DNA of 61,211 bases, the filler included, from Streblomastix strix (lineage: Eukaryota): assembly GCA_008636045.1 (NCBI GenBank). It is 3 parts of 3 records of this genome, joined end to end, with 100 filler letters (N's around TTAATTAATTAA, not from the genome) between each part and the next. Parts side by side here need not be neighbours in the genome. Positions count along the whole stretch, not along the records: positions 40,888 to 61,211 come from SNRW01000440.1; 2 more parts are not named here. One strand, given 5' to 3'. Below the pieces are notes generated by a model. The model was not told the origin of the DNA. It did not search any database and saw only the letters and a list, made by a program, of their open reading frames with translations. Shown here piece after piece: positions 43,424 through 61,211 of this stretch (its first letter is position 1; each line of letters begins with the position of its first letter). The translations under genes and the position numbers were made by a program.

Positions 43424-44499
43424 TCATTTTGCCTTTGCTGCTTCATCTCTAATCCATTCTAAATGCTAAAGTGGTGTATCGATAGGAAGTGAGCAATCAG
43501 CACCAACAATAATCCCTCTTTTTCCTGTTTAGTTCAAGATTGAAACAGTCTCAGATCTTATTTCCTAAACAATTTTTTAAACGTTAATTTATTCAAATAA
43601 ATCATTAAACATACCTATTCACTCCCTATTTTTATAAGACAGTTCTATCCATTTGCAAAACCACCTATTATGCATCGATTCTTGAAGATATCTCTGCCTT
43701 ATGGAATTTTTATGTCTTCAACATGTGATGCCCAATTCACAATTTTAGATTCATAGTCTTTAAACTCTGAAATCGAATTCCTAACGCTGTCATAGCCGCA
43801 GATATGAAGAATATTATAGCCATTTGCCTTATTTGCTGCATCTAAGGCAATCAAGTCACTTGGTTTTATGATTTTTCTATAAGTTTCATCACTAACGCGA
43901 TTTATATCTGGGTTCTGAACCGAATAATACATTCCATCAACTTTTCCTTCATTTATTGCACATTTTGCCAACACAGCTAATCCTTCTCCAATGCGCATCA
44001 ATGCTTGTGAGAGTAATTCTGGATCTGTTGTGATAAATTCAATGATTTTCTCTAATCCAACAAGCCAACGAAGAGTGTTAATAGGACTAAAAAGATTGTA
44101 GAAATACATGGTATCCGGCTATATTGACACTACTTATCGTACGTACTCGACTTATTTCCTGATCCATGGATGATTTGGTTCAATTGGTTACAGACGTTAA
44201 AGATCTTCAATCTTCAGTATTTCACTTTAATCACCTTGAAGTGGATAAAAGAAGAATCCATCACTCATTATCTTCACAAGATCTGGCTTAAACCGTTCAA
44301 TAAAATTCTTCTATCCTATAAACAGCTTTTCAGTTAGAGTCGGATCCTTGAGCGCATTTATCTTTGTTTCATCATGTAGAAAGTGAAACCAAAAAGCCAC
44401 TGGTATTCGATCCACAGGTTTGTTCTCTATTACATCCAGAATTAATTACCTCCTAGAAATTTTATCGTATTTCTAGCCGATTTGAAGATCAGAACTCAT
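43424..44499 (-). CDS. uroporphyrinogen decarboxylase (URO-D/MtbA-like) family protein of bacterial type
   Basis: DRIPVAFWFHF, FKPDLVKIMSDGFFYP, FYNLFSP, ILHICG, VNWA, CIIGGF and IIVGADCSLP; one 50-nt intron 43565-43614. Confidence 0.9.
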
Positions 44500-44972
44500 T
44501 TCTAATAAAAATAAATAGACATAAAATCAAAAAATCAAGTCATATTTAATATATGTATGGTTAATAAGTTTAAATATATGGTTGGCATAAACGGCAAATA
44601 GACAGCTGATTTCAAAGGCGTGCCCTAAATTAAAATAATCGTATTGTTGAGTAGATTCTGAATTTGTAGTCATAAAGTTGGAGAAACGTAATTTCAGGGC
44701 AAGACGGACATTTTTGTGAATTTTAAGTTTTCTTTGAAATTGCTGGATCATTGAGTAAATTAGTTAAATTCTTGTATATATTTGTTTGTTAATGCATATA
44801 TTTGTATATGGATCAATTTATATAACATTTGATGAGTTATAGAGTGCGTATGCAGCGTTTATTAACAAAAAATTTAAAAAACTGAAATACAGCCTTATTT
44901 TAGATTAATTGTATGGTTTTCGTCAAATGACTAATCAAAATAGAATTATATTGACAGTTTCTTGTATTAATA

Positions 44973-45080
44973 TTTGGGTTAGGCGTAAGGTACCCACTTG
45001 GCCTATTCTTAGTGTTGTCTTGATAGAAGTTTGGGTTAGGCGTTAGGTCCCCACGTAGTCTATTATTAATATTATCCAAA
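44973..45080. repeat. two ~57-bp tandem units with GC-rich, self-complementary cores
   Basis: TTTGGGTTAGGCGTAAGGTACCCACTTGGCCTATT and TTTGGGTTAGGCGTTAGGTCCCCACGTAGTCTATT. Confidence 0.8.
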
Positions 45081-45374
45081 TTAAAAATTATCTATTTTAT
45101 TATTATAATTTTCAATAGTATTCATCTCAATTTGTAATTGCATTTTTTAATAATTTACTTCAAGTTGATTTATACGAGCATATGCCTGCACATTTACAAA
45201 TTTGGTCTTTATTTTATCTGGATACTTATCATAGTATACAATAATTTAGCTAATTTACATAATGAACCAATCATTCAAAATATAGCTCAAAATTTATGAA
45301 AATGCCAGTCAAGCTCAATCAATGAATAGAGAAGTCAAAATATATAATTTTTCTTTTCCGTTTTTTCAGCACCG

Positions 45375-46893: not shown

Positions 46894-48903
46894 TCACAGG
46901 TAAGCAACAATTACTGAAATGTTGTCAGTGCTTCCTGTCAAGAAAGCCTGGTCTATTAATTTCAATGAAGCCTAAACAGGATCTGAATCTGTAGCTACAA
47001 TCTAACAAGCAAGATCATCACTAAGCACATCCCATACTCCATCACAAGCAAGAATAATAAATTCATCTCCTGGTGATACATTAGTAACAGTTAGATAAGG
47101 GTCTGCAGTGACATATGGATGAAGGAAGAAATCTCCTAATGAACGTGCAACAGCCAAGATACCAAGGACACGGCGATCTGTAACATGACCACCTAATGCT
47201 CTGATTCTCTCAACTTCTTCAGGAATATCAGCTTTATGATCAAAAGTCAATCTAACTGCTCTTCCTTTACGACTCAATACTATTCGTGTATCTCCTGCAT
47301 TTGCACAGTATATTTTATCACCTGTAAGAAGACACACTGCTCCAGTTGTACCATCATTAATGTCATATCTGTTCATTTATTGATTTGTTTCTAGAAAGGC
47401 TTCTCTTAATGCAACATTTGGAGGCTGACCTGCATCAAGACGTGCAGCAATGATTGGAGGCATATTCTCTGCACAAAATTCAGATGCATCTCTTCCACCA
47501 TGACCATCAAATACAGCAAGAAGATCTTCATCTGGTCGACCTCTGAAGTTACGTTTAATTACAATCATATCCTCCATTGTTAATCTACGTCCAATTGTAT
47601 CTGCATATCCAACTCTAAGCTTCCTCTGTCTTCTTAAATTAGCGTGTCTCTATTAACCTGGAAGAAGGAATGGTAGTTCAAATGGTCCAAACATTGCAGC
47701 CAACCAACGAGCAGCCTGTTACAATATAACTCTAGATGGCATTCTCACTCCAGTTAGATTTGTATTAGCAAGAAGATCTTCAGAAGAAGGACTGCTTGTG
47801 AATTAGCCATGATTAGTAGCATCTGTTCCAGGAGGTGCATTCTCTCCACTTCCTTTCTATCCAGGTGTTATCCAATAGAGACGAGTTCCTCCTTCTGTTG
47901 TCTCTTCTTCTGCTATTAAGTTCTTTGACATTGCTTGCTACCAGAATTCTTCCATAATCTTATTCAATGCATATGAGACTGCATTATTACGTTCAAGGAT
48001 TCGTTCTATGGCAACTAAATGATTGTTTGGTATGGGATTCTGGGATACATCAACTTATCGAAGTGAAGTGTTTTATTGCAATGCTAATACTAACTATTAT
48101 GATCCTTCCATTCCAATGTGATTAGCTGAGAGATCAACATATCCCAATCTATGATTCTCAGGGATGTTAGAAGCTATATGACATGCACCTTCATCTCCCA
48201 TTTCAAGGTGAGATAGTCCAAGTTTGAAGAGAGTTCGGTTCAAGCGAAATGCTATAGAAAGATGCATGACACCCTCCATTTTCCCAGGGTTGAAACTCAA
48301 GTTTAGAGTTGTAAGTGTTTTGTTTGCGCGAAGAGATTATCCCAGTAAAATAAAGCCTGCTTACCCAATTTTGTTGTGCGATAAATCAAGCTGTATAAAA
48401 GTAGAATTAGTAATAATTAAATAGAAAATTTTAAAAACGAACTTTTCGAAGAAAGTGCTTCTCTTTCAGCATATCAGAAACAACATTCACTGCATCATCG
48501 GCCAACCCGCAGTTTTGTAGAGTAAGTTCACAAATACTTTTAGTATTTTCCATCCCATTCAATATGCACGCAAGACATAGTGAGTTTAAGCGTATTTTTG
48601 CGAATAGAACAGGAAGAACAGAGGATTTAACACTTACAGCTGTCAATTGCTCGCCCAATTATGGAAGAAATTCAGAAACTTTCTCCGTTGGCTCCTCCTA
48701 AATTAATGAGCGATATTTTCGAGCTATATTCGCATAGAATGTCTCAGCACTAGAGTTCTAAAACACCAGCGAACTACTCCCGCATCCCCTTATGATAGAA
48801 AAGAAAGAAATTATAAAATTATTGTTATTCTAGTTTGCCCCTTATTATTTATGGATTAATATATTTAAAAAAATATTATATGTGAAAAGAAATAATAATA
48901 CAT
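46894..48903 (-). CDS. N-acylated LRR (RNI-like) plus PP2C/PPM Ser/Thr phosphatase
   Basis: MGCGSSS start, LRRs, then RLTMED, AVFDGHGG, ANAGDTR, LAVARSLGD, LACDGVWD and STDNISV; introns 48789-48901 and ~48392-48440. Confidence 0.92.
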
Positions 48904-49165: not shown

Positions 49166-50240
49166 TCATATATTAATATTGAAATCTGGTTGACTTTCTT
49201 CTTAATGATTCAAGTTCTCTTTAATCTCTTCATCTGACTATATATTTCTATTATTTCCCTGTTTGCTGAATTTAACTTTTATTGTTTTCTTCACTGAATT
49301 ATTTTGATTGACTTATGCATCTTTTTGTACTTCAACTTGTCCAAAAAACTGTCCAAGTGAAATATTTTGTACTATTACTTCTCCTTGTGCATCCTCCTTC
49401 ATAGAGATCGATTTATCGTCTCTTGGAAGTTTTTCTTTTGGTGGTTCAGGAGTTTTTGGCTTTGTAGATTCAGATATTTTTGGCTTTGGAGGAGGAGATT
49501 GTGGTTTTATGAGTGGTACTGCAGGTTTCAAACCTGGAGGGAGTACAATAATTCTTGACTATTTTGTGGTATTTGGCAGATAAATGGAATATTATTATAA
49601 CTGATAGTTCTAAACTGGCTAAATTTGAGGTGGTTGATTACAGATTAGTGGATATGTAGGTATTGTTGTTTGAAGATAGTTTTATAGTGCACCATATATA
49701 TTTTAATTGAAGTTCATATTATAATTTCCTTGTGGAGTTGTCTAATTGTTTGTCAATGGAATTATTGGATAATTTGATTGACATCCAGATTATTATAAAT
49801 AAATGAGAGGATATATTGTCTGTAGAGGCGGATTCTACTGATTAACTGTTGGTGTATTTTGCTGATAATATTGACCCTGCGTCTGTGGTTGAATTGTCTG
49901 ACTTTGTTATGATGGATAAATTGGAGTTTGAACTTGTGAAACTATGGAAATTATCTTTTGTTATGTGATTGAATATTTTTCAAATAATTCTCCTACAATC
50001 ATTTAAATAATAATAAATAATAAAAATAATAAATAAATAATTATAAATAAATGTTTTACATAATAAACACACTGGATAAAGTAAATACAACATTTGCTGG
50101 TAGCAATGGTCTTCCAGTAATTGTATGGAGCAATCAGAACAGATATTTGGATAGGTTGCTTTGTGCCGGATTAATTAATAGGAATTATTGTTATGAATAA
50201 TTGTAATGATTTTAAAATTCTCAGGCAGGCTTCTTTTTAC
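49166..50240 (-). pseudogene. Pro/Gln-rich gene relic adjoining the viral insertion
   Basis: Long P/Q/Y-rich open stretch (49166-49975) preceded by a TGA-containing Cys-rich exon. Confidence 0.4.
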
Positions 50241-50739
50241 ATCACTACAGATAGCATAAATCTGATGATTTAAGCGATAAGTGTTTACTTATTTTAACTA
50301 ACTTATTTTAACTGACTTATTTTGACTAAACGACTTGGTCGAATCAAGTTTTTACTAGTGAAAATGAAATAATTGTATCGACTAGTTATACGATTCATGA
50401 AATGGATTATTAATTAAAATTTGTGGTGATGAACAGTTACAGAATCGATTATAAACATCATTTTTGGAATCTACGAGTGTGATATGACCTTAGAGTAGTA
50501 TATCAGAGAGATATGAAATTTTAAGTTTTTAATGGGAATTCTGACCCACTATAAAATATTTTTAATTTAATTATATAATCTAATAAAAAGTGAAAAATAT
50601 AAGGAAAAATAAATGTTTTCTAATTGACTTGAGAATAAGTCCTAAGGGTAATGTTGATATGCTGATCATGAATTTGATGTTAAAGTGAGTATTGTAACTG
50701 TTGCTTAAGGTGAATTATGTGAAACAATATGATTGATTA

Positions 50740-51460
50740 ATGGCGTGGATAAATTGAATGAAATGACTATGTCTATTGAACACTCTGATGATTATGCTTG
50801 GAATTGTGGATAAATTGAATGAAATGATCAGGTGTGCAGGTGTGCAGGATAAGACCCCCTAAATTTGACCCCTTGAGCAGAAGTCGGTCGGTCGGTCGGT
50901 AAATGAAATATGTCAGCAAAATGAAATTTAGGACAGAAATTTTGTCCCATTAATGTATGAATGTGATAGTGAAGTGGGTAAATGAAGTGAATTATCCATT
51001 AGGACAAAAGGACGGGACGGGACAAAAATTTTTGAGTCCGACGAAAACTGGTGACATATCGACATATTGACATATTTGATGTAACGTGACACTAATATTT
51101 ACTAGTAAATGAAGTGGATAAATGAGATAAACAATCCATTCCATAAACTGTTACGCTGTCACGCTTACACCCAAACTCCTATAAAAAGGGGTAGGTGGCA
51201 AGTGGCAGTGGCAATTTAATTGATTCTTATAATTAGTGAATTTGTAGATAATATTAGAATTATGGAGAAATTGAATGCAATGACCATACCAATAAATATG
51301 GCAGACAAATTGGCAATAAGACAAAAATTCTGTCTCATGTTAGTGCGTATGTGCTAGCGCTGTGGGTGAATTGAATAATTATCCTTATAAGTCAAAAGAC
51401 AAGACAAGACAAAAATTTTAACTCCTGAGAATTTAATCTGCCATTGCCATATGACATAAA
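50740..51460. repeat. array of homologous iteron-like modules (putative replication-origin region)
   Basis: Recurring GTGG(A/G)TAAAT(T)GAA core alternating with short repeated motifs GGTGTGCA, GTCG, GGGAC, GACATAT, GT(T/C)ACGC, GTGGCA and AAGAC. Confidence 0.7.
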
Positions 51461-51515
51461 TTAAATAAAAAATAATGTTTAATCAATCTATTTGAACTTT
51501 TTATCCGTAAGCAAA

Positions 51516-54167
51516 ATGACAACAGTAGAATCCTCAAGCATCAAATCAAACTCAAATGAATCCATAAACGTTAAATATGAGACACTCGAAAAAGGTCCAA
51601 CGCGTAAGTATAATCGTAAATCGAAAGCCAATAACAAGGCAAAAGCATTGATTGATTAAATGATTAAGGAACAAACCATTGAATAACCTAATGATTAACC
51701 TAGTGAATAACCTATATCTTATTTATTAAATTCTGAAGGATGTATTGAAGTAAGACTTGAAAAGTAATAAGAAGTATATAGATTAGAGAAGTTATAGAAA
51801 CAAGCAGAATAAGTATAAAATGATAAAGCATAAATAGATTAACTTCTAGATGTATTGTATCCGATATTTGAATAACATTACTAAGAATTCTAGAATAAAA
51901 CTATTAGCGAAAGAGTTAAAAAAGCTATGATTATCACAGTAAATTATACTAAGATAGGCTAGTAAGAAGATTAGAAAAAATAAGTAACAGGCAAATTAAT
52001 TGATTTAACTCTCGTCGAAGATGGTGATTTTTGTGTAATTGATTTTGATATTAATCATGAACTACCAAAAGAGAAGATTGATGAGATACGCTAGAATATA
52101 ATCGATAACATGCTCCCTATTAATGTTGGATTAGTTAAACAGCACATGGTGGATTACATGCATATTGTAATAGAAGTGGATATATTTTACCTGCAAATCG
52201 ATATGTAAAATGTATTATATTAGATAATATTGAGATTGATATATTTGGATAAATGTTTAAGAATAAAGATTATGCTGATGATCCTGAATAGAAAGAACTT
52301 GTATAGAATCGAGTGGTTGGACCTAATTCATCATTCCGAGAAACGAAAAATAATAAACGAGAGACACTTAAATATGAGACAGTTAATGATTGGGCTAACA
52401 TGACACATATAGCTAATCTAAGAGATATATTGGATAAATGGAATGTCGATATTGAGATATCATATACTGAATACATCGTAAAGAAATAAAAACGAGAATT
52501 TGGATAGCAGATTACAAATGATGGAACTATTGATTAAATGAATGATGAACTTGCATAAGCATGTATTGATGGATTGAAGAATTTAACCATTCATAACTAT
52601 CCATAAGCTATTAATATGGAAGTATCTCTTGTAAGTATATTCTCAGGATTATTTGGAATAATTAATGAATCGATTCGACTATAAGGAATAATGATGCAAA
52701 GAAAAAGGAAAAATAAATCATAATTAATAAGACATTAATACCGAATAAGATTGATTGATCAGATGAATTCATATTACTTGATAAACAAGAGAAAGCTGCT
52801 AATGGAGAATATGAGAATGAAGAATAAATCTTAAAGGATTTAACAAGACTATTAGTATACTACGAAGGTGAAACTGAAGATATATATGCGATTAAAGGAT
52901 ATGATGCTATTTGTGACACATAAGTTTTATATCATAAATTAGAAGGAACAGTCTATAAATAGTTAGATGAAGTGATTATAAATTATAAGAACTAGAAGAA
53001 AGATCCTGAAAATGATAATAAAAATTACTAACAACAAAGCATATCTTCAAGAAATATGCTTCAAAATTTATAAAGAAAGGATGCAAATTCGTTAGTGAAG
53101 ATCTGAAAATCTTCACAGTATTCCAAGGGTATAAATATAAGAAATTAGATACAATCGACTATGAATGTTTATAAATGTACTTCGATTTAATTAAAGATTC
53201 TATTGCTACAGTCGATGAAAGAGTCTATGAATATATTCTTAATTGGATAGCATGGATGATACAAAATCCCGGAAAAAAGTCTAAAGCAGCAATTATATTA
53301 TAAGGTAAACAAAAGATAAGCAAAAATAGATTCACTGATGTTATCGCTGAACTAACAAGTCGATACAGCTGTCCAAATATAACTAACATAGATGAGTTCA
53401 CAGGAAGGTTCAATTCAGTAGTTGAGAATAAGATGTTCGCAGTATTGAATGAGATAATGAATTACAACGATTCTAAGAAAGGTGTTTCAACAGTAATGAA
53501 ATCGATAATTTCAGATTTAACAATAAGAATTAATGAGAAGAATCAACCTAGAAGAACAGCCGAGAATGTTATAAACGTGATATATGTAACAAACGCTGAT
53601 ATGTCAGTTCAATTAGACACAGATGATAGACGTCATTTAGTATGTGCATGTAAAACAGTTCATTAAGTAATTGAAAACATAAAGAAGATGCTGAATATTT
53701 TAAAGAGTTAAATTAAAACTATACATAAGAATTCTATGAGAATTTGATGACTTTCATACTTGAAAGAGATTTTTAATAGTTCAATCCTGCAATAATTCCA
53801 ATGACTGAAGCTAAAAAAATAATCGATGAATGTTAGTCGATCACTAGTAGATGATATAATTATGGAACATTATGAACAGTTCAAATAAAGAATTCCAGTA
53901 GCTCTTGCAAATTAATGTAAACCTTAAAATTGGCAATTAAAGACATATAAGAATGCTTTGGAACATAAATGCTCAACTTCAAGACCATATATTAACGGAG
54001 TGTAAGCAAGAGTATTTGTATTGAACAAAGATTAATAAACATATTACGATAATATGATGACTGAAGAAGATATTGAAGCATTTAATAAAAACTATCAGAA
54101 ATACAATAATTCAATTGAAGATGATAGATTCGTTGATTAAGTGGTATTGAGTATAAAAAAAAGAATG
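51516..54167 (+). pseudogene. PrimPol (AEP)-D5-like SF3 helicase fusion
   Basis: FCVIDFD (~52030-52050) and (T)AHGGLHAYC (~52142); YEYILNWIAWMIQNPG, degenerate Walker A ILQGKQKISKN, GRFNS, Walker B AVLNE, IYVTN and DDRRH; several frameshifts. Confidence 0.88.
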
Positions 54168-54196
54168 AAAATTGAATTTATTTTTGTTCAAAGATT

Positions 54197-54860
54197 TATG
54201 GCAGATATATTGGCGATAAGACAAAAATTCTGTCTCATGTTGGTGCATGCGTGCAAGCGCTGTGGAAGAATTGAATGAATTGATATATAAGACAAAATAT
54301 AAGACTAGACAAATCCTATGAACGCCAGCAATTTTATCTGCCATTGTCATATGCCATAAATGTCATATACTTCAATTTGAATCTAAATTTGAAGGTCTAG
54401 TGAATAATTAATGAATGAATCAATATATAGTTTGCCATAAGAATTATAGATATGGCATGACTCTTAAAGTATGTGAGACAAATTTGTCTTTTAGTTATTA
54501 GACATAGAAACTATTTTTGAAAATGAACGATTCTGTGATTATCGAAAATCCTTCAATATATTTGTGAAAATGAGGATAAGACAATTCTGAAAGTCGATCT
54601 TTGATAAGTCTGCCATAAATAGATTCAATGGTAATTTATGGCAGTGCAATTAAGGTAGAATTTAGGTTGAATGTTCACTAGATGTGGAGAATTAGATTCA
54701 AATCGAAGGATATGGCATTATGGCAGATGGCAGATGATTTGCACAAACTTCCGATGGATTTGTCTTGTTTTGTCTTTTGTCTTATATAGAGATTTATATA
54801 ATATTACCTATGATTCTAGTACATTAACACTAACATGCATAACCTTATAAGTCAAAAAAG
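54197..54860. repeat. second copy of the 164-bp module plus an inverted copy, forming a long imperfect inverted repeat
   Basis: 54197-54360 aligns with 51297-51460; 54197-54440 is complementary to ~54630-54860 (e.g. CTTCAATTTGAATCTAA vs TTAGATTCAAATCGAAG). Confidence 0.8.
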
Positions 54861-55316
54861 ATAAAATGGAAATAGATACCTGCTATTAAATTTTATATTA
54901 TTATCTCTAATCATTAAAAGGAAGGACTAATCGGGAGAATTAATAGGCAAAAATAAACCATTCTCATTGATTGTTTGGACTAATTCATCTTAATTTACCT
55001 TATTTATCTAATTATCTCTATTAATTAATGTAGTATTTTTATTGTTTCTTAGCTTATTATTATGTTATCTTACCGTCAAATAAATCCATTACAGTTTACA
55101 TAAATGCACTGTTTTTGTATCCTTTCTGTCTTTATTCTTTAGACAAATTAGATCCATTATGTGATATTGATTATATATAATCGTGATATCTTTAATCACT
55201 TTATTCTTTTTACTCTTTTTACTCTTTTTACTCTTTTTACTCTTTTGTCAAAGTCTTTTCGTCGTGTTTCATTTATTATAACATAAAAATAATTAATCAC
55301 AAAAATAAATTCTTTC

Positions 55317-55853
55317 TCATTGATTGTTTGATTAGTTGTTTGATTAGTTGTTTGACTAGTTGTTTGATTAGTTGTTTGATTGGTTGTTTGGTGAACTATT
55401 CTATTGATTGTACCGATCAATTATCTGGCTAATATGAAGTAAATCCTATACGTCATATATGATAGTTTTCTATAAACGTCGAATCAATAGAAGTTATAAA
55501 TCGTTAGCAGATGTTCGAAATTCCTATCGCTGAATTCTATATTTTTACTGTGTGCGTTGACGTTACTAGGTGGCTATCCGTTCAGCTTCTTCTAGTGAAC
55601 TATATTTTTTAGGTCTTCCTCTTAGTTCTATTTTCTCTTGATCTAATTATGTCAATGAAATAGGTTTAAGTGATGTATCATTTATAGGAGCATCAATTAT
55701 AGAAACATTTATTAAAGAAGCTTCAATTAAAGGAGCATCAATCGTAGGAACATGAAGCACTTCATCAATTGGACTGGATTATGTTTCAATCAATTATGGA
55801 ATTGGTTTCTTTGATTACCTTTTACGGATTTGTTTTGTTTCACTTGCTTGCAT
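55317..55853 (-). CDS. viral AT-hook DNA-binding protein (178 aa)
   Basis: Intact ATG-TGA frame; RGRPKKYSSLEEAERIA; C-terminal (NNQS)n. Confidence 0.75.
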
Positions 55854-55873
55854 TTGATTTAAAAATAAAAATC

Positions 55874-57744
55874 TCAATTACTTATATTAAATTAACTTTT
55901 ATAGTTTGCTGGCAATGAATTGATATAGTTACTTACGAATTTACAGTAATAAATAGAAAATTCAATTACATCAATTCCTTAGAACGGGTTCAACAATTTA
56001 CATACAACATTACCGTTTTTATAAGTAACGAATGTAGCTAACTCATTGAACTATCTTCTTTACTTCTAGAATCTTATATTTGTCCTAGCATAATCTGCAT
56101 GAATCATCAATATATTTCCACTCTTGAAATTGAATAGATTTTTCTGTTATTGATTCAAAATTATCTGTTCCGTTTGTGCTTATTTTTATCTTATGAATTT
56201 ACCTTCTAAATCCCTATTCAACTACACTTATTGAGGTGTGAATTTATTATGATATGATAGATGCGGTGTTTTGCTATATATATTAACCATCAATTACATC
56301 TTACTAGGAGTAGCAAATGCTAATAAATCTTAACCGAACCCATTTCTTATTTTACATATAGCACTATCAACTACTCTGTTATGTTAAGTGAAACAAAATG
56401 ATGTGAAGAATAATGATATATTGGTTTCATTGCAAAATTCTTTAATAATGTTAGCATTAAAAATCAGTCTCACCATCGCCTCTTATATTGTTAACATATA
56501 CCTATTTTATGAGTTTTTATAATGCAAGTTTAATCTATGCAGCACTCTTATCAATCATTGGTATCACAACTAGATATTTTGTATTAATATTGTTCGCAAA
56601 TAAGTATTGCTAATTTCTTCGTGTTATCGGATTTGTACCGAATACAAGATCAATTTCCCAAGACCCTAATTTTGGTGAGAAATATGGACGTTATAATTTA
56701 TTTAATGGTTTCACTTTAATATCTTTGATTTATGTTTATTTCGTTATTCTTTCATTATTGATTTTTTCGTATTATTTCATTTTTGATTTGAATGGAAATA
56801 TTGTTATTTATTATTGTTTAGTTTATGACTATAAATTAACATAAGGTAATCTTCTAATTGTTTTTGCAAGCTTTAATGGAGCATTATATTATTTTGCTTT
56901 ATTTATATATATTTAATACCATTCACTCATATTTTTTCAACCTAATTATATATCATCAGCTTTAATAATTAATATATCATATTCAGCTCTGCTCGGAGTA
57001 ATTTTCATATTTGAAATAAACTATGGAAATTTCATTATTTCTCCATTATTTGATCTTGCTAAATCTGTGAGTTAGTTCTACATATTAATTGCTGCTTCAC
57101 TAATCTACTGATCAGTTTGATCATATTTTTATAACAATAGTTCATATACTCTATCTTATTGAGCTTATGTAAGGTGATCTCTATACATTTTATCTTCAAA
57201 AATAATCATAAAATCAATGGCATAATTTACTTTCACAAGCATATTTTATACCTGCTTCATAGATAATTTTCCAGATACTTTTCCAATTTATTCCCAATGA
57301 ATCTAATGTTTCGAATGCAAGAGTAGTATTTGCAGCTAAATTTTCAGTTAATGGTATGAATAGCGTTTCGATTGGCATTTCATTAGCCAAAAATAAATCA
57401 ATCACTCATCAATATTCTCAACTATCTATTCTAATTCGTCATTATAATTATTTCGTACTTCATCGTAATTAATTGATACATTATGTAATCTGTTCTATTA
57501 ACTGTTTTCAACATTTAAGTTCAGTATCTCCTTCACTAGTTTTTATTTTAATAACTTATTCATTGATTTTTCTTGTTTTAATACACTCTTTTTTTGTGTC
57601 TAATTGATCTGCACATCAATTTAACTAATCAATAATTTGTTATAATTACATAGATAATTTGAATAATTCCTTAGTCTATCGCATTTATGAAGTGCATTAA
57701 TTAAGCTTATCAGCAACATCTTTGTACTTGTCTTATTTGTCCAT
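55874..57744 (-). pseudogene. Polinton-type retroviral-like integrase with long N-terminal extension
   Basis: RPYFSPKLGSWEIDLVF, YLFANNINTKYLVVIP, IRGDGE, HNRVVDSAI..IRN and YSKTPH; frameshifts and TGA upstream. The 5' part could be a separate gene. Confidence 0.82.
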
Positions 57745-57768
57745 TTTGATCAAACAAAAATAAATTAA

Positions 57769-60700
57769 TCACTATATAATATAATATCTGTCTGCTTTAA
57801 TCCCATGTATGAATGGAACGCACGATTGATTTTATAATACTATCATTTTTGTATGAGATCCAGTTATTGCATTTTTCTCCATTTTCAACCTGTTCATAGA
57901 CTCCTTGTGTTATGCTGACGTCGTATTAATAGCCGTTGTAACAGAACCCTTGTTTATACAATCCACGAATGTTTATTGATTGATCTACGGATTTTGATCC
58001 AAAATTACTCCCTTCAAAACAATCTCATCATTAATTATGTAATTTTTAGGTGATAAAGCAATACAGTTTAATCCATACTTTTTCACACCTAAATGCAATA
58101 TCTATTTCCTCTCATTATCCGTATACACACTATTTTTGTACCTATCATAGAACTATGAGTCTTTGATGACTGCTTCGAATAGTTACTCAGAACCACGATT
58201 TGAATCACCGCTAATCGCATAAGTGAGTGAATCAGTGTCCCCTTAAACGAAATGCATCTTTTACATATCATACGCCTTGTGCATGAAATTATATATAAAA
58301 TTAACGTACCAAAATTTTGCTGAACCTAATATGAAATATGCTTCTTATAAACAAGTATTACAGTGACAATTCTCTTTATCGACTTATACAGCGTACAAAT
58401 CATCGTTCAATTCTGTAGAATTAATGAAGCCAGACATCATATGCTATTGAAACGTTCGTTCAGACGATAGCAATTTTGTATTCGAGTACTTCTCTGAATT
58501 CAAACAATCACCACCAAAAGTTGAATTCAATATTATTTTTGCAAATTATGATAGTCCATCATTATGATCATCTTTCGCTTGCTATCTTATACTCATAAAT
58601 TCTTTAACAAACGAATTGAAATTAGTATGTTTCGTAAATGTTGTAACACTAACTATCTCGTTTATAATAAAGTTACAAATAAAAATAAGTAGCTATACAT
58701 AATAATTGTTAAAACTCATTACTTAATTCATTATATCCACAAGATTAGTCAATTTACGTTCAACTGAATCATGTGGAAGCTTATGCTCGACTAGATGATT
58801 ATATATAAATTCACCTATAGTTTCTTTATTAGTTTTATGTCAATGTTCCTTAATATTGGAGCCCAATTAATCACATCATTTAAATAATTTTCATCAATAT
58901 GACCCTTAACTTCTGCAACAAATAGATACATCTAATCAACAACTAACTTATCACTACTAAATTTATTAGCATCATAAATCAACTACATACATTTATTTTT
59001 TTCAGTAATCTTTTCAATTAATTGTGCTGGCATATATATTGTATTACAAGTGTATGGATTCAACGCGTTTGGTTCGCCACTCATAACTGATGGATATTAG
59101 CTATTGAAATCTAACTAAACTACATGCGTTTAAGCATAATCTGAATCGATAGAGTATACGCACTTATTCTCCTTATCGTACTCGAAATGATTGATTCTAG
59201 TTTCACCCGCAATATTATATCGATACATCAAATTTGATAAACCACCCGTTATTCCTTTACGTAATAACTAATATCCTTCATCACTTGTTAGTGTCATGGG
59301 TAATTATTTAAATAACGCATACTTCCTTAGTTATATCAGTAATTTCATCTAGTTTTCATCACGATTTGCTTTATAGGTATTACAGTACAAGCAGCATGGA
59401 ATAACATTGGATTTTGAATGACCTAACTTATTTTTATCCTATCAAGTGTAGGACGATTCTTCCAAGTAAATCTTGCATTACAAATATGACAACGTTAATT
59501 CTTGAATACATCTTTAAAATAATAATAATCGTCAATTGAGACATTATCACTTGAATCTCTATCCTTTTTACTATCTTATTCGATATAGCTTTCAACTTTC
59601 GATTTCCAGTAACACTACGTTATATCAATTGTTTTGTCAGTTGATTCATAATTGTAGTTATCATTAATATCGAAACTATTATAACACATAGTATATTTAA
59701 TAGCGTTTACGCATTAAGCCATAGAGATATTAGTCAACATATCAATCTTATATTTGAACATCGGATTAATGAAGAAATCAATTGGTTCGATTAATATTCT
59801 AGTATCTAATATATTATAATGCTTCAAATAATCCCATCGTGTTTTGAACTTTGCTGCTTCGACCAGATACTCCTTGTACTTAATTTCATTTAGCTTCTTA
59901 TTTCTTAATTAATTATCAAACGCATCAATCGGAAATGGTTCGCTTTTATTTAATTCTTCCATGAAATTATTAGTATTTATGAACTCGTGTGGAAACTTAC
60001 TTTTCTTATACTATCCATTTCCAAAATCTCGAACACAATCCTTCAATCTAGTATGTGTAGTGTAAATATTAAAATCAACAAACCTTAACTAAATTCCAAA
60101 TAGCTTATGTTTCACAAATATCTGTTTTGCTATTGATGTTGAGCCTAAATACTTCGAGATAGTCCAATCTTTTAACTTTAGATTCATAAATACATGTGAC
60201 GTATCAAATTTTGCTGAATTGAACCCAATAATTGGCACTTCAAAATATTACGGTATTGTCTCATCTTAGTAATTATTATCTTTCTTAACTTATTTACCTT
60301 CATCGAACAGTTACTCTAACCACTTATCTAAGAAATCATCAGTACGAATATCGTAATAGAATGAATGTATACCGCTAGCAGATTTGACAGTTGATGCGAT
60401 AGCATATGGAACTAACGTTGCAATAACTTATGAGCAATCACCGAATTTTTCATTAACTTTCCTCTCTAATGTTTCAATATCATATGTAATGTAGTATTAT
60501 GTAGGCTTGAACAAATGAGTTAGATTGTTCGCTAATAGATACTTGTATATCTTGTTAGATAATATATGAGGAACAAACGGTTTCGCAAATATCTCAAGAA
60601 TGACCTTTTTAACTATTTTTTCACCATTCTTTTGGCATTTTTTCATATGATTTCTCATTGATTATTATAGATTCTTATCACCTATTCGGAATGCTTATTT

Positions 60701-61211
60701 GTGACAGATATTACAATAACGGAATCCAGTTAATGCTTCAACATCAGATATATACATAATGTGAGCATTGATTCCATCGTTAATGAATAGGATATTGAAC
60801 TATTTTTCTTTATTTTCAATTGAATAGTTTTATAATAACTCATAACGTGGCGGACTATCTGAGTATGTATACATGTGCACATTAACTTATTCTTTATTTA
60901 TGAAATTATCAATATCATTAACAAAATCAAATCCTTAATAATTATCTCGAAATTCCACTCTATTATCCCTGAAGAATATACGCTTTGCTTCAGCGATTCG
61001 TGAACTATCCTTCCATTGTTTATCTTTCGAATTTGGCATTGTAATGAATGAATAGGCTGTCCAGAAGCATAGATTTACTTTACAGTCTACATAATAAATT
61101 TCTCTTCGTTTGATATGCTGTTTTAATGATGGAATTGCTGCACCTCCTAATGGATATTGAAATATGAAGAACATTACTGAGAATATTGCTATTATTTTTT
61201 CATGAGTATCA
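57769..61211 (-). pseudogene. protein-primed family B DNA polymerase (pPolB), 5'-truncated
   Basis: Exo I YDIETL, Exo II IGFNSAKFD, KFPHEF, Exo III-like YLKHYNILDT, Pol A LDFNSQYPS, Pol B KIILNSTFG, Pol C VQGDTDS and ALSPKNY...LKGV. Cys-rich insert; frameshifts near 59520 and 58840; TGA at 57769. Confidence 0.93.

Follow-up and report, generated by a model that had tools for sequence, protein, structure and literature searches.

The window analysed here is a 61,211-nucleotide stretch of DNA from Streblomastix strix, an oxymonad protist of the termite gut, and consists of three contigs with N spacers between them; the contig of interest occupies positions 40888-61211. Under the standard code, just one frame of at least 80 amino acids appears within 50280-61211, and that reading was dropped in favour of code 6 (TAA/TAG = Gln), which reveals the genes in the same interval. 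Across 12 relatives, the residues facing TAA/TAG are K in 84, Q in 51 and E in 43 of 416 columns, which are non-independent; the tally is consistent with read-through and alone cannot fix Gln. Read in code 6, two gene blocks converge, with a primase-helicase on the plus strand facing pPolB, integrase and AT-hook genes on the minus strand (Table 1). This confirms the convergence reported in a preliminary description of the locus.

Table 1. Features of the element on the contig of interest (positions along the window)
Feature	Position	Strand	Basis
Left, apparently non-coding portion of repeated DNA; approximate left element boundary	50171..50908	.	Depth rise; alignment of a 2411-nt contig
Repeat copy A (~160 bp)	50909..51066	+	Scores 100 in local alignment; best of 30 shuffles, 49
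Repeat copy B, 55 bp upstream of the primase-helicase start codon	51297..51461	+	Reference for repeat scoring
Broken Prim-Pol + PriCT-2 + SF3 helicase gene (code 6; primase domains predicted)	51516..54164	+	Pfam, relatives, folds, motifs
Repeat copy C, 33 bp past the helicase stop, 2900 bp from copy B	54197..54361	+	Self-comparison, alignment
Repeat copy D, inverted	54711..54837	-	Local alignment score 94
Short conserved frame (sister copies, 67 aa), with a stop close to its end in this copy	54964..55167	-	65-68% identity to P0221, P0223, P0226, P0227
AT-hook small basic protein; RGRP at 55622	55317..55856	-	Open frame in code 6; sister copies 59-69% identical
Broken rve-type integrase	~55877..57380	-	Sister copies, PF00665, motifs
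Broken pPolB, 5' end lost at the contig end	57772..61210	-	Pfam, relatives, motifs, sister-copy model

The left limit of the element is marked by a steep rise in the summed depth of look-alike contigs, from 42 at 49900-50060 to 3709 at 50222-50382, and by a 2411-nt contig of another copy that can be aligned only from 50171 onward. Summed depth is not copy number, and the genes were therefore left unranked by it. Repeated DNA begins near 50170-50220 rather than at 50280, where the preliminary description had placed the start, while the gene set and arrangement given there are real. The left portion carries short tandem repeats, including a 14-mer present three times at 50287-50329. Among the look-alike contigs aligned, none covers the whole stretch. 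Self-comparison found no partner for 50171-50900. One element end lies on the contig, which stops within the predicted terminal-protein domain of pPolB, so that the opposite end is absent; neither a terminal inverted repeat nor a target-site duplication is seen on the contig. Judged from its sequence, the copy at 50171-61211 is dead, with primase-helicase, integrase and pPolB each broken several times; it belongs to a virus-like mobile element present in many copies, of which this one is broken. The preliminary description was silent on this decay.

The primase-helicase matches PF19263 (E 1e-15) and aligns with P0002 in four pieces at 78-91% identity. Its frame changes near 52140, 52690 (with ~50 residues gone), 53020 and 53680-53820; it also carries in-frame stops, and its helicase Walker A motif is damaged at 53301-53327. 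The AEP motifs are present in the window (DxD at 52035-52052, H at 52145-52159, D at 52232-52246), spread over several frames. Among 58 host-species copies, where covered, the AEP residues are D in 25/26, D in 26/28, H in 29/31 and D in 29/30, and the Walker A lysine is found in 38/38. Pfam and PHROGs detect no primase domain in the gene, and they gave no match to any contig 1 frame scanned. The Prim-Pol and PriCT-2 domains of the family are predicted from relatives. The fold of a Trichomonas vaginalis relative of the Prim-pol family (P0048; 198 cluster members) resembles pRN1 and pIT3 Prim-Pol in its N-terminal domain (Z 10.1 and 9.9), the NrS-1 N-domain (Z 8.3) and, in its helicase, that of the phage NrS-1 primase-polymerase-helicase (Z 26.8), and Atlas calls Prim-Pol plus PriCT_2 for a sister copy (P0005) at 0.95-0.96. 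Together, these two relatives display a Prim-Pol fold with DxD, H and D, a helical primase accessory domain and an SF3 helicase. In a FastTree phylogeny of 87 of the 139 helicase sequences, with root support 0, the 22 host copies form one clade (support 1.0) and T. vaginalis is nested among unnamed metagenome proteins; this tree identifies no donor.

The pPolB gene matches PF03175 above the cut-off (E 4e-7) and has polymerase motifs A, B and C in place (59114, 58539 and 58242), as well as the exonuclease motifs. It breaks near 59432 and 58836, and an endonuclease VII/HNH insert lies at ~59491-59379. Cys/His motifs of vOTU type occur at 61075 and 60766, and of a predicted terminal protein the window retains the last strand, the rest being cut off. 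In the model of a sister copy (P0100), residues 70-194 align with the Y-family polymerase little-finger domain (Z 7.2, rmsd 2.7 over 88 residues), a match returned in 50/50 rows at a Z below the tool's caution line of 8, and the model itself is weak (mean pLDDT 49, built on 8 alignment rows). A little-finger-like fold is the reported signature of polinton terminal proteins. The same model gives seven viral matches at E <= 0.001, labelled adintovirus, MELD and densovirus/parvovirus, of which 5/7 are named DNA polymerases. A PDB sequence search from the pPolB alignment returned just two coiled-coil-like matches (E 0.18-0.41), and for the pPolB N-terminus Atlas returned only unnamed, arthropod-rich clusters (0.91). 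We lean towards the family's pPolB having the predicted terminal-protein and vOTU domains, and the polymerase is likely protein-primed. At the level of the family, both priming systems look genuine.

A stop codon interrupts the integrase at 56937, and the gene changes frame near 56457; its acidic triad reads D (56660), D (56480) and D (motif at 56380) in place of D,D,E. Its sister proteins are labelled integrase catalytic domain proteins in their sources; PF00665 is matched by 18/29 of those scanned, with a best E of 3e-4 and all under the Pfam curated cut-off. Of the 46 matches in the integrase search, 45 are confined to the host species.

Sister copies place these genes side by side repeatedly. 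The host species supplied 63 helicase and 78 integrase/AT-hook records, among which five pairs have contigs of equal size; in four, on contigs of 4034, 9206, 11683 and 19075 bp, the gene tags are 1-2 apart, and the fifth (1397 bp) was excluded as its contig is too short for both genes. This adjacency is taken from gene tags and contig sizes, not from DNA, and orientation was not read there. A uniform null predicts 0.20 pairs and reached at least four in 9 of 100,000 draws; as repeats cluster, the true P is above 9e-5. An integrase neighbour is listed for 4/32 helicase records on contigs of at least 4 kb, both lists being partial samples. The 19075-bp contig additionally holds pPolB (model P0184), and pPolB is joined to the integrase of this family in five gene models. 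The 4034-bp contig carries the C-terminal part of the helicase, the integrase and the 67-aa frame, a content that agrees with the spacing in the window. By the preliminary description's own standard, a helicase never occurring with the module in other copies would have counted against its reading; four other contigs link them. That unrelated repeats came together by chance in a genome rich in them could draw on the many copies of both gene families and on the frequency of nesting among Mavericks, but the adjacency recurring on four independent contigs, the agreement of the 4034-bp contig with the spacing in the window and the presence of the 160-bp repeat on either side of the junction make it highly improbable.

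No capsid, A32 ATPase or maturation protease gene lies within 50171-61211, the element's other half being off the contig, and no capsid motif was detected in the window; the label 'virus' is thus unsupported by the sequence present. A P-loop ATPase is located on contig 1, unlinked to the element contig, and the preliminary description's suggestion of a tie to that ATPase/fibre contig goes unsupported. tblastn of 211 proteins, then of 37 more, against contigs 1 and 2 gave no match. The absence of morphogenetic genes from 11 kb, these tblastn results and the near-restriction of the integrase matches to the host would suit a capsid-less, transpoviron-like or transposon-like replicon of pPolB, integrase and primase-helicase that has no kinship with the host's capsid-bearing elements, the contig 1 ATPase among them. 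We consider such a replicon improbable. The contig stops inside pPolB with the other half unseen, and the tblastn miss on contig 1 is expected because the proteins came from searches with replication genes. Moreover, 820 capsid genes of one cluster are present in S. strix (PMC10120064 Table S4), and TvMav3, a Maverick of T. vaginalis, combines capsid and ATPase with primase and pPolB. Pattern searches for related loci gave 127 matches in viral contigs and 120 in metagenome contigs, with 0 confirmed in either set.

The repeat is present four times and, at copies B and C, brackets the primase gene, a feature missed in the preliminary description. Copies B and C are 82% identical, and copies C and D together make up a long, imperfect palindrome where the two gene blocks converge. 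The C-D pair (54190-54860) folds with a z of -5.8, with 0/20 shuffles as good, and is the sole folding part; taken one at a time, the repeats are no more stably folded than their shuffles (z -1.6 to +1.7 in 6/6 windows; copy C, -0.7 and +1.7) and therefore lend no structural support to an origin. In other copies, the unit at 54172-54573 loops back in tandem. Copies A/B and D were ruled out as terminal repeats, their outer flanks being unlike. The repeat core was found at 7 loci in metagenome contigs, none beside related genes, and these were put down to chance. The ~160-bp repeat bracketing the primase gene is a candidate internal origin, or alternatively the border of a mobile cassette.

As direct repeats 2900 bp apart flank it, the primase-helicase might be a separate one-gene replicon (~2.9 kb, akin to the minimal replicon of the archaeal plasmid pRN1), docked in or beside the pPolB-integrase element, co-amplified with it and able to loop out between B and C. 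In one contig, 54323 runs back into 51445 (depth 8.4), resembling the joint of a circle, and in one, 51242 runs on into 54195 (depth 13.7), resembling an empty site; but either joint could just as well come from a sister copy with a repeat nearer C than B, and neither has been demonstrated to have gene sequence on both sides. Of 60 unnamed matches, 50 are full-length, and 34/50 of these lie on contigs that exceed the gene by less than 1 kb (median 565 bp), whereas the contigs of 4/4 full-length pPolB relatives leave 2.7-11.4 kb over; short contigs are, however, usual in metagenomes. No Maverick gene name occurs among the 15 listed for the T. vaginalis cluster, a 2026 preprint reports second replicases bracketed by repeats, and pRN1 is reported to require 166 bp downstream of its primase-helicase gene. 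Against this, the primase-helicase adjoins the integrase in four other contigs, the repeat is also present inverted on the integrase side and in tandem upstream, and the repeat unit is without the stable stem-loop that pRN1 requires. A docked replicon is in our view unlikely. Slightly less likely again is that a self-replicating cassette of one gene and 2.9 kb, made up of Prim-Pol/SF3 with its flanking 165-bp repeats, resides inside a Polinton, forms circles and has spread independently among oxymonads and trichomonads. If true, the cassette would parallel the pRN1 minimal replicon in eukaryotes and would be an active route to replicase swapping in polintoviruses.

The interpretation that we favour, and regard as fairly probable, makes the locus the leftmost 11 kb of one decayed copy of a Maverick/Polinton-type element that is present many times in an oxymonad. 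On this view, the primase-helicase, the integrase and the polymerase, which is likely protein-primed, are likely regular neighbours in the family, and the primase-helicase likely gave it a second, internal start of DNA synthesis. The earlier proposal of a Polinton-like element with both pPolB and a primase-helicase is supported. In an intact copy, the integrase would insert the linear genome, pPolB would prime at free ends through its terminal-protein domain and the vOTU would cleave off the terminal protein. The primase-helicase, as a hexamer, may assemble on the repeat array that adjoins its gene, open the duplex and make primers for pPolB. This route could let an integrated copy, which is without free ends, start copying, or could provide restart or opposite-strand primers. 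The decayed copy in the window is capable of none of these steps.

The pairing of pPolB and integrase with a primase is already known, and multi-replicase polintoviruses are published, so that the surprise expressed in the preliminary description was overstated. The pairing was discussed in 2015 (PMC4405056) and is the norm among class-3 Mavericks of T. vaginalis; in TvMav3 (n=1705), primase is present in 91.8%, pPolB in 74.3% and integrase in 82.5% (PMC12289875 Suppl. Tables 3-5), and a primase ORF is reported in the Tv1.6 Maverick of T. vaginalis (PMC7845603). TvMav3 resembles the present element in its metamonad host and in being many-copy with pPolB, c-integrase and a DNA primase gene, but its 100-130-bp terminal repeats and its capsid and ATPase genes are unseen in the Streblomastix contig. 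Its 'DNA primase domain protein' may or may not belong to the same family as the Prim-Pol/NrS-1-type protein. With narrow word filters, no T. vaginalis pPolB or integrase appeared among the relatives found, and six T. vaginalis gene tags are absent from the genome paper's supplements.

TP-vOTU-Exo-Pol Polintons (bioRxiv 10.1101/2024.03.18.585575) share the predicted terminal-protein and vOTU domains, a homing-type nuclease insert in pPolB and an rve integrase; in contrast, the Streblomastix element adds a primase-helicase, code 6 and an integrase triad ending in D, and its morphogenetic module is unseen. Multi-replicase polisuviruses (bioRxiv 10.64898/2026.10.13.758929) likewise combine pPolB, a DDE integrase and an AEP-SF3 gene marked off by internal repeats, but are individual genomes, snapshots of replicase turnover, whereas the Streblomastix pairing recurs across a single family, in five copies or more. 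pRN1, pIT3 and NrS-1 also have a conserved stretch of ~165 bp directly after the gene; they are, however, prokaryotic replicons without pPolB or integrase, and pRN1 has a stem-loop origin of a kind that single Streblomastix repeats do not form. Assignment to the PLV type, with AEP-SF3 in place of pPolB and a tyrosine recombinase, was rejected, as pPolB and an rve integrase stand beside AEP-SF3 here. In published polintovirus sets, AEP replicases are mostly paired with tyrosine recombinases, not DDE integrases.

The accessible Streblomastix-Polinton literature deals with capsid genes and the genetic code only, and within it the replication module of the oxymonad element seems undescribed; preprint supplements may list the family. 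With a known pairing and a dead copy, the advance is a modest one, unless the cassette with the primase turns out to be mobile. In one scenario for the origin of giant viruses, polintoviruses gain a primase-helicase, so that DNA synthesis starts inside the genome (PMC4405056). Families with both a protein-primed polymerase and a primase are a natural test of that scenario, to which the Streblomastix element adds a second metamonad lineage and a concrete candidate origin.

The primase-helicase is probably a regular gene of this Polinton-like element family. The converging layout of the preliminary description is borne out, with the primase-helicase facing a block of protein-primed family B polymerase (pPolB), integrase and AT-hook genes on the opposite strand. 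The association of helicase and module recurs in other copies, as read from source gene tags and shared contig size, a route by which orientation is not visible. Within partial samples of 63 helicase and 78 integrase/AT-hook records, four helicase-integrase/AT-hook pairs share an equal-sized contig with gene tags 1-2 apart (a fifth, at 1397 bp, was excluded), and one of these contigs also carries pPolB (sister protein P0184). pPolB is joined to the element's integrase in five gene models. That neighbouring genes are a chance pile-up is highly improbable: a uniform null, which ignores repeat clustering, expects 0.20 pairs and reached four in 9 of 100,000 draws. By the same partial lists, an integrase partner is listed for 4 of the 32 helicase records on contigs of at least 4 kb.

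Features of the element and of the contigs around it
Feature	Position	Strand	Remark
Primase-helicase	51516-54164	+	faces - strand block
pPolB	61210-57772	-	code 6 frame
Integrase	~57380-55877	-	code 6 frame
Integrase, third acidic residue	56380-56363	-	D
AT-hook gene	55856-55317	-	code 6 frame
67-aa frame	55167-54964	-	code 6 frame
~160-bp repeat	50909, 51297, 54197		before (two) and directly after primase gene
~160-bp repeat, inverted	54837-54711		
18-bp motif	50745, 50806, 50974, 51114, 51262, 51362, 54262		six upstream of primase gene, last after it
Possible high-copy repeat	50383-50704		no clear reading frame
PP2C gene	46894-48465		host
Uroporphyrinogen decarboxylase-like gene	43534-44526	-	host; PF01208, E 3e-9
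MITE-like structure	44703-45310		inverted arms
P-loop ATPase, contig 1	15421-16330	-	Walker A 16330-16307, Walker B 15756-15742
Fibre-like frames, contig 1	17128-18417		adjoin ATPase
Tandem duplication, contig 1	10634-11190		278 bp, identity 98%

Pfam and PHROGs scans of the primase-helicase gene detected the helicase and not the primase domain. A structure model of the Trichomonas vaginalis relative P0048 (pLDDT 82), which shares 34% identity with host copy P0005 over 803 columns, matches the NrS-1 helicase in a fold search (Z 26.8, rmsd 4.9, 364 aligned); its residues 33-197 match a pRN1-type Prim-Pol (Z 10.1, rmsd 3.3, 146 aligned). In the Atlas, residues 140-460 of P0005 group with Prim-Pol and PriCT_2 clusters (0.95-0.96), and T. 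vaginalis annotators named some members 'Prim-pol domain family'. Most of 58 host copies retain the AEP catalytic residues (D 25/26, D 26/28, H 29/31 and D 29/30), whereas the modal residue averages a frequency of 0.81 over the surrounding region; the primase was likely functional during the spread of the family. In T. vaginalis, the P0048 cluster is a Prim-Pol/SF3 family of 198 members, with no Maverick gene name among the 15 listed, and may mark an unannotated element.

Cys and His motifs of the vOTU type, exonuclease motifs and polymerase motifs A-C all occur in the pPolB of the window, which also has an endonuclease VII insert. Its N-terminal part, cut off in the window, was modelled weakly (mean pLDDT 49) from sister copy P0100. 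Residues 70-194 of this weak model align with the Y-family polymerase little-finger domain (Z 7.2, 50 of 50 rows), a little-finger-like fold being a reported signature of polinton terminal proteins (bioRxiv 2024.03.18.585575). An OTU domain stands at rank 40 among its fold matches, and polymerases from adintoviruses and their relatives make up most of its best viral matches. The predicted linking loop has a Thr in all seven rows covering it, offset by one column in one row. Together, the Prim-Pol evidence and the predicted terminal-protein domain point to two priming systems at family level, likely a primase and a protein-primed pPolB.

In such a system, the integrase would insert the element and pPolB would prime at free ends, while the primase-helicase may load on neighbouring repeats and start synthesis internally, as an integrated copy, having no free ends, would need. 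The earlier interpretation is partly supported: its Polinton-like element with an added primase-helicase stands; its internal origin is something we infer. The ~160-bp repeat, absent from the preliminary description, is present in four copies that align with scores of 94-198, where shuffled sequence reached at most 49, and the unit loops back by 379-402 bp in other copies, so tandem arrays exist. A strong fold was obtained for the inverted pair (z -5.8) and not for single units. Several of the seven 18-bp motif copies, which are possible binding sites, are followed by short GC-rich tandem runs with a period of 4-8 bp.

The main rival, that the primase-helicase is a docked, pRN1-like one-gene replicon, is unlikely. 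The pRN1 minimal replicon measures 3.1 kb (PMC4234260), and two low-depth joints read as for a 2.9-kb circle and as for an empty site; sister repeats fit them equally. In 34 of 50 full-length metagenome relatives, the contig extends less than 1 kb beyond the gene, which hints faintly at a free-standing unit.

The copy in the window is a fossil. Frame changes break all three large genes (primase-helicase, integrase and pPolB), stops also fall in the helicase and integrase, and two glycines are missing from the Walker A motif of the helicase. The integrase triad is D,D,D here and in the three sister sequences read (P0168, P0170, P0176). Gene content differs between copies: in the P0176 gene model an HNH endonuclease (PF13392, E 9e-8) precedes the integrase, and in that of sister P0206 a Fic domain is fused to the AT-hook gene tail.

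The standard code leaves almost no reading frames in the element region; code 6, in use by the oxymonad S. strix (PMC10120064), brings out the element genes and the host PP2C gene. A helicase-piece search gave 98 relatives, including 35 from S. strix, two from Monocercomonoides and one from T. vaginalis, which makes S. strix the most likely host. Look-alike contigs accumulate from ~50170-50220 on, with none piled over the host gene, which places the left end approximately there. The element occupies the right end of the third of three N-spaced contigs (40888-61211), its own right end lying past the contig end. At 50383-50704 the summed depth of look-alike contigs is very high, and this stretch may be a separate repeat.

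The element behaves like a Polinton plus primase-helicase and, termini and capsid genes being unseen on the contig, is a putative full member of the Polintons. That it is a capsid-less replicon is quite improbable; 820 capsid genes are credited to S. strix (PMC10120064 Table S4). Annotated primase genes in T. vaginalis Mavericks number 2,716 (PMC7845603). The class-3 Mavericks (TvMav3, n=1705) are reported with primase in 91.8%, pPolB in 74.3%, integrase in 82.5% and A32 ATPase in 90.8% (PMC12289875), the primase beside pPolB and integrase, as here; theirs is known by annotation and may be another family. Genomes that carry several replicases, with repeats bracketing replicases, have already been described (bioRxiv 2026.10.13.758929), the primase/pPolB pairing has been termed not common (PMC3671162), and one account leaves metamonad elements still unplaced (bioRxiv 2026.06.19.733378); further context is found in PMC6431247, PMC4642659, PMC12220804 and PMC11296320. 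The matches listed in literature searches on Streblomastix with Polinton and on oxymonad elements did not describe the module.

For the possible tie to contig 1 raised earlier, no link to contig 3 was found. The contig 1 ATPase, broken and lacking Pfam or PHROGs matches, is presumably A32-like, judged on its motifs. A tandem duplication also lies on contig 1. The host part of contig 3 holds a uroporphyrinogen decarboxylase-like gene and a MITE-like structure, whose inverted 76-bp arms, 456 bp apart, enclose two direct 47-bp repeats.
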